A stretch of DNA of 64,000 nucleotides from Escherichia phage NHEP36, in the sequence record PQ511151.1; one strand, given 5' to 3'. The notes under the pieces are model-generated. The model was not told the DNA's origin and did no database searches. It saw nothing but the letters and a program-made list of their open reading frames with translations. This document shows positions 38,719 to 40,790 of this stretch, in pieces (within the stretch, counting starts at the first letter, position 1; every line of letters begins with the position of its first letter). A program made the translations under genes and the position numbers.

Positions 38719-40404
38719 ATGAAAAAAGCTGTTATTCTTGGTGCTGGACTGGCAACTCGTTTGTATCCAATAACGCATCATATTCCTAAGGTGCTTGTTA
38801 ACTATAAACAAGACACTATTCTGAGCAATTTGTATACAATTTATTCTGACCTTGGCGCAGATGAAATTATTGTAGTAGTTCATTCAAAATTTGCTGAAAC
38901 TGTTCGAGCTTATTGTGAGCAAGAAGGGTTCAATGTGACTATTCGTACAGTTGATGAAGCGTATGGTTCTGCTTATGCTCTTGCTAAATTACACAAAGAT
39001 TTAGACGGCCATAATGTAATTGTTAACTGGTGTGATATTATTCCTGATTTTGGTTCATGGTCTTGGAATGTTAACGCAATCTATGTTAAGGGCGACGAAT
39101 GTCGATATAATTTCGACGGTGAAAATATCACTAACGTAGGTTCAACAGGTGGTAATGTTGTAGGAATTTATCAGTTCAAAGACTGGGAATTCTATATGGG
39201 TTCTACTGATGAGGAAATTCATGAATACTGCAAAGGACGTGATTTCGTAGAATTCCTTTACAGCGGCGCATTCAATAAATCAGAGCTTATGAATCTAATT
39301 GATTTAGGTGATATGCCTAAACTCGAAAAAGCTCATGAAGTTCGTGAACTTAATCGTAGTTTTAATGCAGTTGAAATTGGTGAAGAAACTGTAACTAAAT
39401 TCGCATTAACCGAACAGGGCCGAGCTCTTCAGAAAGATGAGATTTCATGGTATCTTAAAGTGAAATCAGATTCAGTTCCTCAGTTAGTTTCTGTTAATGA
39501 AAATAACTTTGAAATGGAACGCATTAAAGGTAAGCCGGCATTTGAATATATTAAATCCAAATCAAGTCTTGCTCGTCCACAAATTGTTGATGCAATTTTA
39601 GATGCACTGAAATTCAGCACAGACACTTATTTTGTAAGTCCTGAAACTGTTCGCCGTGATTTCACTAAAGAATTCTATACTAAAGTTATTGATCGTTGTG
39701 AAAGTATTCAACCATTGATTGATTCATTTGGTAAAATCACACATGTGAACTACACTAAGATTGGGCGTCTGAAGCCGATGTTGAAACAAGCTTTAGAACA
39801 CCTTATTCGTTATCATAACCGTTCTCAGGGACAGTACTCTGTTATTCATGGTGACCCGAACTTCAGTAATACTATGATTACTGATAATGGCGAAGTCAAG
39901 TTTATAGACCCTCGTGGATATTTTGGTGAAACCAAGATTTACGGGCCAAAATTGTACGATGAAGCTAAAGTGCTTTATGCTGTTTCAGGTTATGATGAAT
40001 TCAACGCTAATCCGACATGGGGACAGTTTACTATTGACGAAACAAGTTGTAATGTGACTATTAACATCAATCCATTAATTTACAAATATGGAAAGCTGAG
40101 TTCGTTTAACGAGTATCATCATTTGGCCGTAGCAATTATCTGGATTGCATTAGGTGGTTATTTCAAGAATAATCCACTTAAAGCGGTAGCCGCATATTAT
40201 AAAGGTATGGAACTTCTGACTAAGCAATTACGTAACATGGGCCGTGTACTTCAAGACGGCTCTATTAGTTATGACGTAGCAGAACCTGTAACGGCTACTC
40301 TGATTACAAAAAATCCTGGTAAATGGGTACTAACTGATAAAGAAACTGGTGTTTCCTATCGTCCAATCGGTGGCGATATCACTCATCAATGGGAACGAAT
40401 CTAA
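38719..40404 (+). CDS. bifunctional sugar-1-phosphate nucleotidyltransferase / sugar kinase-like protein
   Basis: N-terminus MKKAVILGAGLATRLYP (NDP-sugar pyrophosphorylase G-x-G-x-R motif); C-terminus HGDPNFSNTMITDNGEVKFIDPRGYFG (APH/choline-kinase-like catalytic loop). Confidence 0.75.
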   Translation: MKKAVILGAGLATRLYPITHHIPKVLVNYKQDTILSNLYTIYSDLGADEIIVVVHSKFAETVRAYCEQEGFNVTIRTVDEAYGSAYALAKLHKDLDGHNVIVNWCDIIPDFGSWSWNVNAIYVKGDECRYNFDGENITNVGSTGGNVVGIYQFKDWEFYMGSTDEEIHEYCKGRDFVEFLYSGAFNKSELMNLIDLGDMPKLEKAHEVRELNRSFNAVEIGEETVTKFALTEQGRALQKDEISWYLKVKSDSVPQLVSVNENNFEMERIKGKPAFEYIKSKSSLARPQIVDAILDALKFSTDTYFVSPETVRRDFTKEFYTKVIDRCESIQPLIDSFGKITHVNYTKIGRLKPMLKQALEHLIRYHNRSQGQYSVIHGDPNFSNTMITDNGEVKFIDPRGYFGETKIYGPKLYDEAKVLYAVSGYDEFNANPTWGQFTIDETSCNVTININPLIYKYGKLSSFNEYHHLAVAIIWIALGGYFKNNPLKAVAAYYKGMELLTKQLRNMGRVLQDGSISYDVAEPVTATLITKNPGKWVLTDKETGVSYRPIGGDITHQWERI

Positions 40405-40790
40405 TGCACCGTGTAGAAAACATGCTTAATCTTTGTTTTGATGTCGATGATTGTATAACAGAGTGGAATAACAATCGTGATTACGTGAACTTCAAACCAG
40501 ACGTCGAAATGGTGACTGCCATTAATGCCCTGTATGATGCAGGGCATACCATAACGCTTTACACCGCTCGCGGTATGAAGTCAGTAGGTCCTGGTCGTAT
40601 AGCAATTGACATTCTCCCAAGTCTTATTCAGAACTTGGCAAAGATTGGCTTGAAGTACCATAATTTGCTAACACATAAACCAGTATATGATTGGATTATC
40701 GACGACAAAGCTATGCGTCCTGACGAATTCAAAGCTCTTATGAATAAAGGCGAATTCGAAACATTTAAATCATATAAACCGAATCTATAA
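40404..40790 (+). CDS. HAD-like phosphatase
   Basis: Motif I FDVDDCIT, motif II ITLYTARG, Lys and WIIDDK motif; internal Met 6 of ORF 40389..40790. Confidence 0.6.
   Translation: MHRVENMLNLCFDVDDCITEWNNNRDYVNFKPDVEMVTAINALYDAGHTITLYTARGMKSVGPGRIAIDILPSLIQNLAKIGLKYHNLLTHKPVYDWIIDDKAMRPDEFKALMNKGEFETFKSYKPNL

Follow-up and report, generated by a model that had tools for sequence, protein, structure and literature searches.

The gene and its reading frame

The stretch of DNA analyzed here, referred to as the window, comprises 64,000 nucleotides of Escherichia phage NHEP36 (PQ511151.1) and contains a sugar island in which a small gene, the subject of this report, encodes a 128-amino-acid protein. 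The protein is very probably the Mosigvirus orthologue of AfhF (gp51 of phage RB69), a Mg2+-dependent, capless HAD phosphatase of the UDP-D-arabinofuranose pathway. The genes in this part of the window are arranged in the order DNA polymerase (35150-37861), SIS-domain isomerase, 561-amino-acid nucleotidyltransferase/kinase, phosphatase and U32-family protein, followed by a 76-amino-acid open reading frame (ORF), a ThyA homologue, a glycosyltransferase, a nucleotide kinase and uvsX (Table 1). This order is the same as that of RB69p056 to RB69p044, with the phosphatase gene in the place of RB69p051. The window is that of a Mosigvirus, an RB69-like T-even phage; both 308Ecol101PP and RB69 are classified in this genus.

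Table 1 Positions of the phosphatase gene, its catalytic motifs and the neighboring genes in the window.
Feature	Position	Strand	Remarks
AfhF orthologue (RB69 gp51 counterpart), coding sequence	40404-40790, including stop	+	128-amino-acid capless HAD phosphatase
HAD motif I, FDVDDCIT, residues 12-19	40437-40460	+	Aligns to DLDGT of 1xpj
D13, predicted nucleophile	40440-40442	+	Motif I
D15, predicted general acid/base	40446-40448	+	Motif I
HAD motif II, TARG (T54), residues 54-57	40563-40574	+	Aligns to STARN of 1xpj
HAD motif III, lysine K92 in THKP	40677-40679	+	Aligns to GKP of 1xpj
HAD motif IV, WIIDDK, residues 97-102	40692-40709	+	D100 and D101 predicted Mg2+ ligands; aligns to YIDDRA of 1xpj
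SIS-domain arabinose-5-phosphate isomerase (RB69 gp55 counterpart), ribulose-5-phosphate to arabinose-5-phosphate	37902-38537	+	phrog_5670, E = 4e-116; synteny with RB69p055
AfhE-like bifunctional enzyme (RB69 gp52:53), 561 amino acids	38719-40404	+	phrog_4098; 98.8% to RB69 ORF052c/053c
U32-family protein (RB69 gp50 counterpart)	40832-42007	+	Pfam Peptidase_U32, E = 7.5e-11; weak UbiU match
ThyA homologue, 5-hydroxy-dCMP (5hodCMP) synthase (RB69 gp48)	42276-42992	+	PHROG match; order as in RB69; function per PMC13326640
Glycosyltransferase (RB69 gp46:47)	42992-43891	+	PHROG match; order as in RB69; function per PMC13326640
Nucleotide kinase (RB69 gp45)	43893-44441	+	PHROG match; order as in RB69p048-045; function per PMC13326640

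The phosphatase ORF was confirmed. It consists of 128 codons followed by TAA (40788-40790), and the three motifs that a first-pass annotation had quoted from it (FDVDDCIT, TARG and WIIDDK) are all present in the translation, far beyond what would be expected by chance. Its ATG (40404-40406) overlaps the TAA of the upstream 561-amino-acid gene (40402-40404) by one base (TAATG), a junction typical of coupled genes that suggests translational coupling with the AfhE-like gene. Starting at an alternative in-frame ATG, at position 40389, would lengthen the protein by 5 residues. The shorter form is favored because it is the one annotated in related phage records, because the N-terminal HRVEN is retained in homologues at 71-84% identity, and because the crystallized HY126 AfhF construct (PDB 9iqw) begins with MHRVEN, as does the window protein.

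Identity with AfhF and the HAD fold

A PDB sequence search matched the protein to 9iqw, an entry released 2025-07-16 whose title names a phage HY126 encoded D-arabinose 1,5-diphosphate phosphatase, AfhF. The two proteins are identical at 126 of 128 residues (E = 3e-86). The only differences, T38S and K80N, are conservative, lie at variable alignment columns and carry nothing of functional note. Identity to RB69 gp51 (RB69p051) is 97.7%, and HY126 AfhF, RB69 gp51 and DLP3 gp81 are the closest known proteins, the likeness to AfhF extending to length and to the HAD motifs, including an unusual Cys in motif I. Like AfhF and RB69 gp51, the protein is encoded directly downstream of an AfhE-like gene in an arabinosyl-5-hydroxycytosine island, and the genes for an arabinose-5-phosphate isomerase and a 5hodCMP synthase are adjacent in the window.

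All four HAD catalytic motifs were found in the protein; motif III, with K92, was missing from the first-pass list and completes the set. In an alignment of 28 homologues with identities as low as 35%, residues D13, D15, T54, K92, D100 and D101 do not vary, and neither do R56, G57 and S60 in the motif II region or P93. Motif II leads into a conserved, family-specific loop, GMxSVGPGRI. R56, S60 and the GPGR part of this loop may serve to bind the 1-phosphate of the substrate. The features by which HAD proteins are recognized are thus all present: the DxD of motif I, the Thr of motif II, the Lys of motif III, the DD of motif IV and a Rossmann-like core fold. By analogy with the HAD superfamily, D13 would attack the phosphate to form an aspartyl-phosphate intermediate, with D15 as general acid/base, while T54 and K92 would hold the phosphoryl group and D100 and D101 would bind Mg2+. 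The homologue consensus at motif I is DIDNTIT. The window protein has C17 at the fifth position (DVDDC, 40440-40454), where the other aligned homologues have the canonical Thr of DxDxT. This Cys was common only to the window protein, HY126 AfhF and two close homologues, P0001 and P0002, the latter labeled Pectobacterium phage PM2.

Structure prediction, which the first-pass annotation had proposed as a check, gave a HAD fold and not some other fold. The AlphaFold (AF2) model built with the alignment was used (predicted local distance difference test, pLDDT, 82; predicted template modeling score, pTM, 0.73), and a single-sequence model (pLDDT 36) was discarded. In the alignment-based model, D13-V-D15 sits on a predicted strand (residues 9-13). 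A Foldseek search of the PDB with this model returned 9iqw first (E = 9e-22), followed by 1xpj (E = 3e-7), and then GmhB (3l8h, 4pnh), HisB-N and the phosphatase domains of polynucleotide kinases (PNK), including T4 PNK. Together, the invariant motifs, the predicted fold and the match to 9iqw bear out the earlier proposal that the gene encodes a HAD phosphatase.

The second match, 1xpj, is a Vibrio cholerae structural-genomics protein (APC26283) that was also recovered in the PDB sequence search (E = 1e-10). It and the family TIGR01689 share with the window protein a minimal capless HAD fold of ~125 amino acids, at ~30% identity, and 1xpj also has the four motifs and the TAR(G/N)M loop, which is conserved. 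TIGR01689 (EcbF-BcbF capsule biosynthesis phosphatase) was the best NCBIfam match, at 50.3 bits and E = 2e-13; the curated cut-off for this family is 162 bits, and the window protein therefore belongs to a sister group and is not a member of the subfamily as defined. The match to HAD-IIIA (TIGR01662) was faint, at 14 bits, below the cut-off of 44.6 bits, which places the protein outside GmhB/HAD-IIIA. GmhB, the HAD-IIIA D,D-heptose 1,7-bisphosphate 7-phosphatase of the ADP/GDP-heptose pathway, has 11-16% identity to the window protein, which is ~50 residues shorter and lacks the Zn-binding insert. The sugar of the GmhB pathway is a heptose, whereas that of the window pathway is a pentose, and the partner kinase is of the pfkB type for GmhB but has an APH/choline-kinase fold here.

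The first-pass annotation had also called the enzyme KdsC-like. KdsC, the Kdo-8-phosphate phosphatase, is likewise a capless HAD phosphatase and works in a pathway that starts from arabinose-5-phosphate. The comparison holds for size and for the absence of a cap. It fails for kinship, as KdsC was not among the close structural matches and the protein falls outside KdsC/YrbI, and the assignment was rejected. A nucleic-acid or nucleotide phosphatase was also considered; it could be a 3'-phosphatase like that of PNK or a 5'(3')-deoxyribonucleotidase, and would act on DNA ends or on the pool of deoxynucleoside monophosphates instead of a sugar phosphate. The window protein is only 9-14% identical to PNK phosphatases and lacks a kinase domain, its gene is strictly linked to those for AfhE and the isomerase, and a near-identical protein has been characterized as a sugar bisphosphate phosphatase. 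This reading is very improbable, and it too was rejected.

Database labels

The protein falls in phrog_1238 (E = 1.4e-42), a PHROGs family labeled 'phosphoheptose isomerase', and the same label is attached to RB69p051 (L037:4501-4887) and to many RefSeq phage records. There is next to no chance that the label is right. No SIS or other Pfam domain was found in the protein even at E <= 1, and 128 amino acids is too small for GmhA. An isomerase was ruled out since fold and motifs are those of HAD, and the label has the appearance of an annotation error that has spread between records. Other records name the gene 'capsule biosynthesis protein', 'polynucleotide kinase' or 'haloacid dehydrogenase', none of which is the known activity.

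Substrate and order of the steps

RB69 DNA contains arabosylated 5-hydroxycytosine, and not arabinosyl-hydroxymethylcytosine (Lee et al., NAR 2026, PMC13326640). According to the same paper, the ThyA homologue gp48 makes 5hodCMP, and gp55, gp52:53 and gp51 are listed as the three enzymes that take ribulose-5-phosphate to nucleoside diphosphate (NDP)-arabinofuranose. In its summary of He et al. (2026, Nat Chem Biol), the HY126 AfhE enzyme first phosphorylates arabinofuranose-5-phosphate (Araf-5-P) to Araf-1,5-P2, which AfhF, the gp51 counterpart and a Mg2+-dependent phosphatase, converts to Araf-1-P; gp51 probably takes off the C5 phosphate (PMC13326640). The title of 9iqw agrees with the bisphosphate substrate given in that paper.

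Substrate, step order and Mg2+ dependence are carried over to the window protein from this literature and from the title of the PDB entry for HY126 AfhF, which is 98% identical to it. On this basis, the phage SIS isomerase would turn ribulose-5-phosphate into arabinose-5-phosphate, which the kinase domain of the AfhE-like enzyme would phosphorylate at C1 to give arabinofuranose-1,5-bisphosphate. The phosphatase would then strip the 5-phosphate to leave arabinofuranose-1-phosphate, from which the AfhE nucleotidyltransferase domain would form UDP-arabinofuranose, so that the AfhE-like enzyme would both supply the substrate of the phosphatase and use up its product. Finally, the phage glycosyltransferases would transfer the sugar onto the 5-hydroxycytosine of phage DNA, shielding the DNA from host nucleases.

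The first-pass annotation had placed the phosphatase ahead of the anomeric kinase, converting a sugar-5-phosphate to free sugar. That activity is probably wrong, as the 98%-identical HY126 protein was deposited as a D-arabinose 1,5-diphosphate phosphatase, and the order was not borne out: in the account of HY126 that PMC13326640 summarizes, AfhE acts first, on Araf-5-P, and no free arabinose is formed. The phosphatase-first order corresponds to an earlier published proposal that still stands in Table 1 of PMC13326640. In this scheme, arabinose-5-phosphate would be hydrolyzed to free D-arabinose, the neighboring kinase would phosphorylate C1, and the product would be nucleotidylated. It draws on that table, in which the kinase step reads 'Phosphorylates Ara to Araf1p', and the computed results obtained here favor neither substrate over the other; HAD sugar phosphatases are, moreover, often promiscuous. 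Opposed to it are the name given to the near-identical enzyme in the PDB, the fact that the nearest sugar-pathway structural relative outside its own family, GmhB, is a bisphosphate phosphatase, and the arrangement of the genes. In the ADP-heptose pathway, the SIS isomerase GmhA is followed by the bifunctional kinase/nucleotidyltransferase HldE and the HAD bisphosphate phosphatase GmhB, and the layout of isomerase, bifunctional kinase-nucleotidyltransferase and HAD protein in the window mirrors this established GmhA-HldE-GmhB pathway. We regard this phosphatase-first route as unlikely. Dual specificity, for the bisphosphate and for arabinose-5-phosphate, is a possibility and the only non-trivial alternative left for the window gene.

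Some points count against the assignment as an AfhF-type bisphosphate phosphatase. Motif I (DVDDC) departs from the usual DxDxT, although HY126 AfhF has the same residues. Table 1 of PMC13326640 gives gp51 as 'dephosphorylates Araf5p to Ara'. The activity of the window protein itself is carried over from HY126 AfhF, and substrate and step order go back to the title of 9iqw and to the summary of He et al. 2026 in PMC13326640.

The sugar island

Placement of the phosphatase in a sugar island, as first annotated, was upheld by its neighbors (the isomerase, the AfhE-like enzyme, the ThyA homologue, the glycosyltransferase and the kinase) and by synteny with RB69. The isomerase matched the NCBIfam models KpsF and KdsD (E = 2e-32 and 7e-31, respectively) with scores below the curated cut-offs (113 versus 204 bits for KpsF). 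At 211 amino acids, it covers only the first ~150-200 positions of these models. KdsD and GutQ have C-terminal CBS domains, which the phage isomerase would lack. The N-terminal part of the AfhE-like enzyme is a sugar-1-phosphate nucleotidyltransferase (Pfam NTP_transferase, residues 3-99), and its C-terminal part is APH/choline-kinase-like, with weak kinase-family matches at residues 308-409. A promoter and terminator consensus scan of 37800-44600 gave results at the level of chance (23 promoter-like sequences versus 25.9 expected, and 4 terminator-like sequences versus 3.8).

Distribution among phages and bacteria

A megablast search with 38000-44500 found 151 phage records with a coverage of 80% or more of this region and 154 records at 95-99% identity. 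The records listed were all E. coli or Shigella phages, the best being vB_EcoM_TU01 at 98.4%. In the phage collection, 383 records have an AfhF homologue and 376 an AfhE homologue, and the two counts are identical for Escherichia (176), Acinetobacter (57), Klebsiella (25), Shigella (15) and a number of further genera. The matching counts lend independent support to functional coupling of the two proteins.

When bacterial species were scanned, each represented by one genome, 34 loci with relatives of the phosphatase were found. One of these (L002; CAVJPU010000002.1, 167 kb), labeled as a bacterium isolate, is evidently a T4-like phage genome. Its island contains the isomerase, AfhE, AfhF, ThyA homologue, glycosyltransferase and kinase in the order of the window, at 46-69% identity, without the U32 gene. 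At the remaining 33 loci, the relatives are 26-39% identical to the phosphatase, and a tblastn search with the island proteins found no AfhE, isomerase or ThyA-homologue neighbors at these loci. The arabinose module is therefore phage-specific in this sample.

In six of the eight bacterial loci with ORFs listed, the HAD region forms the C-terminal part of an ORF of ~343-477 amino acids. Three of these fusions (L017:5260-6309, L021:5281-6312 and L025:5221-6288) have an N-terminal CTP_transf_3 cytidylyltransferase domain (Pfam), and in two of them the next gene encodes a NeuB-family synthase with a cupin domain (L021:6340-7827 and L025:6323-7834). In L003:4891-6324, the HAD region is fused to an NAD-dependent epimerase/dehydratase. 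T4-like coliphages and Acinetobacter phages have the phosphatase as a separate gene beside AfhE. Synechococcus phage S-SSM7 (GU071098.1, L036:2941-7099) also encodes a separate homologue, 38% identical and annotated as 'phosphoheptose isomerase', near genes for two small putative nucleotidyltransferases, a putative carbohydrate kinase and a nucleotide-sugar epimerase. The locus looks like another kinase/phosphatase/nucleotidyltransferase module for sugar activation; S-SSM7 is not known to arabinosylate its DNA. From the bacterial fusions and the S-SSM7 context, the clade seems generally tied to nucleotide-sugar synthesis. The clade of small capless HAD proteins has no Pfam model, and wrong labels are widespread in it. 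A wider and rather doubtful generalization is that it serves as a general module for taking the distal phosphate off a sugar phosphate, always in partnership with a sugar nucleotidyltransferase. If this were true, the known activity of the phage enzyme would help assign function to the bacterial fusion proteins.

The U32-family neighbor

No PDB sequence match was found for the U32 protein. The U32 proteins include O2-independent hydroxylases, namely RlhA, which forms 5-hydroxycytidine (ho5C) in rRNA, TrhP and UbiU/V, and the phage protein is worth testing as a candidate anaerobic route to 5-hydroxycytosine. Its conservation is unusually high, with identity of 80% or more in each of the 221 phage records that have a homologue; among them are Shewanella, Proteus and Providencia phages, in which AfhF identity falls to ~54-67%. 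The 57 Acinetobacter phage records and L002 lack the gene but have AfhE and AfhF. The published account of the island lists it only as a 'sugar or heterocycle reductase' (PMC13326640).

Significance

The phosphatase of which the window protein is a near-identical copy has been crystallized and is described as characterized in PMC13326640; the window protein is in that sense already known. Pathway, activity and crystal structure were published in 2025-2026, and the window thus adds only another near-identical copy. A full-text literature search on AfhF/AfhE and HY126 found PMC13326640 as the only relevant paper; ORF051 is not discussed in Thomas et al. 2018, and the phosphatase is not mentioned in the Thanatos paper or in the transposon-mutagenesis preprint.

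These results indicate that the common database label for this gene, 'phosphoheptose isomerase', is wrong, and that the intuitive order of phosphatase before kinase should give way to a GmhB-like bisphosphate route. Hypermodification of DNA with arabinosyl-5-hydroxycytosine stops many restriction enzymes and also influences sensitivity to other defense systems (PMC13326640). The enzyme would supply the arabinofuranose-1-phosphate for the UDP-arabinose that decorates 5-hydroxycytosine in RB69-like phages.
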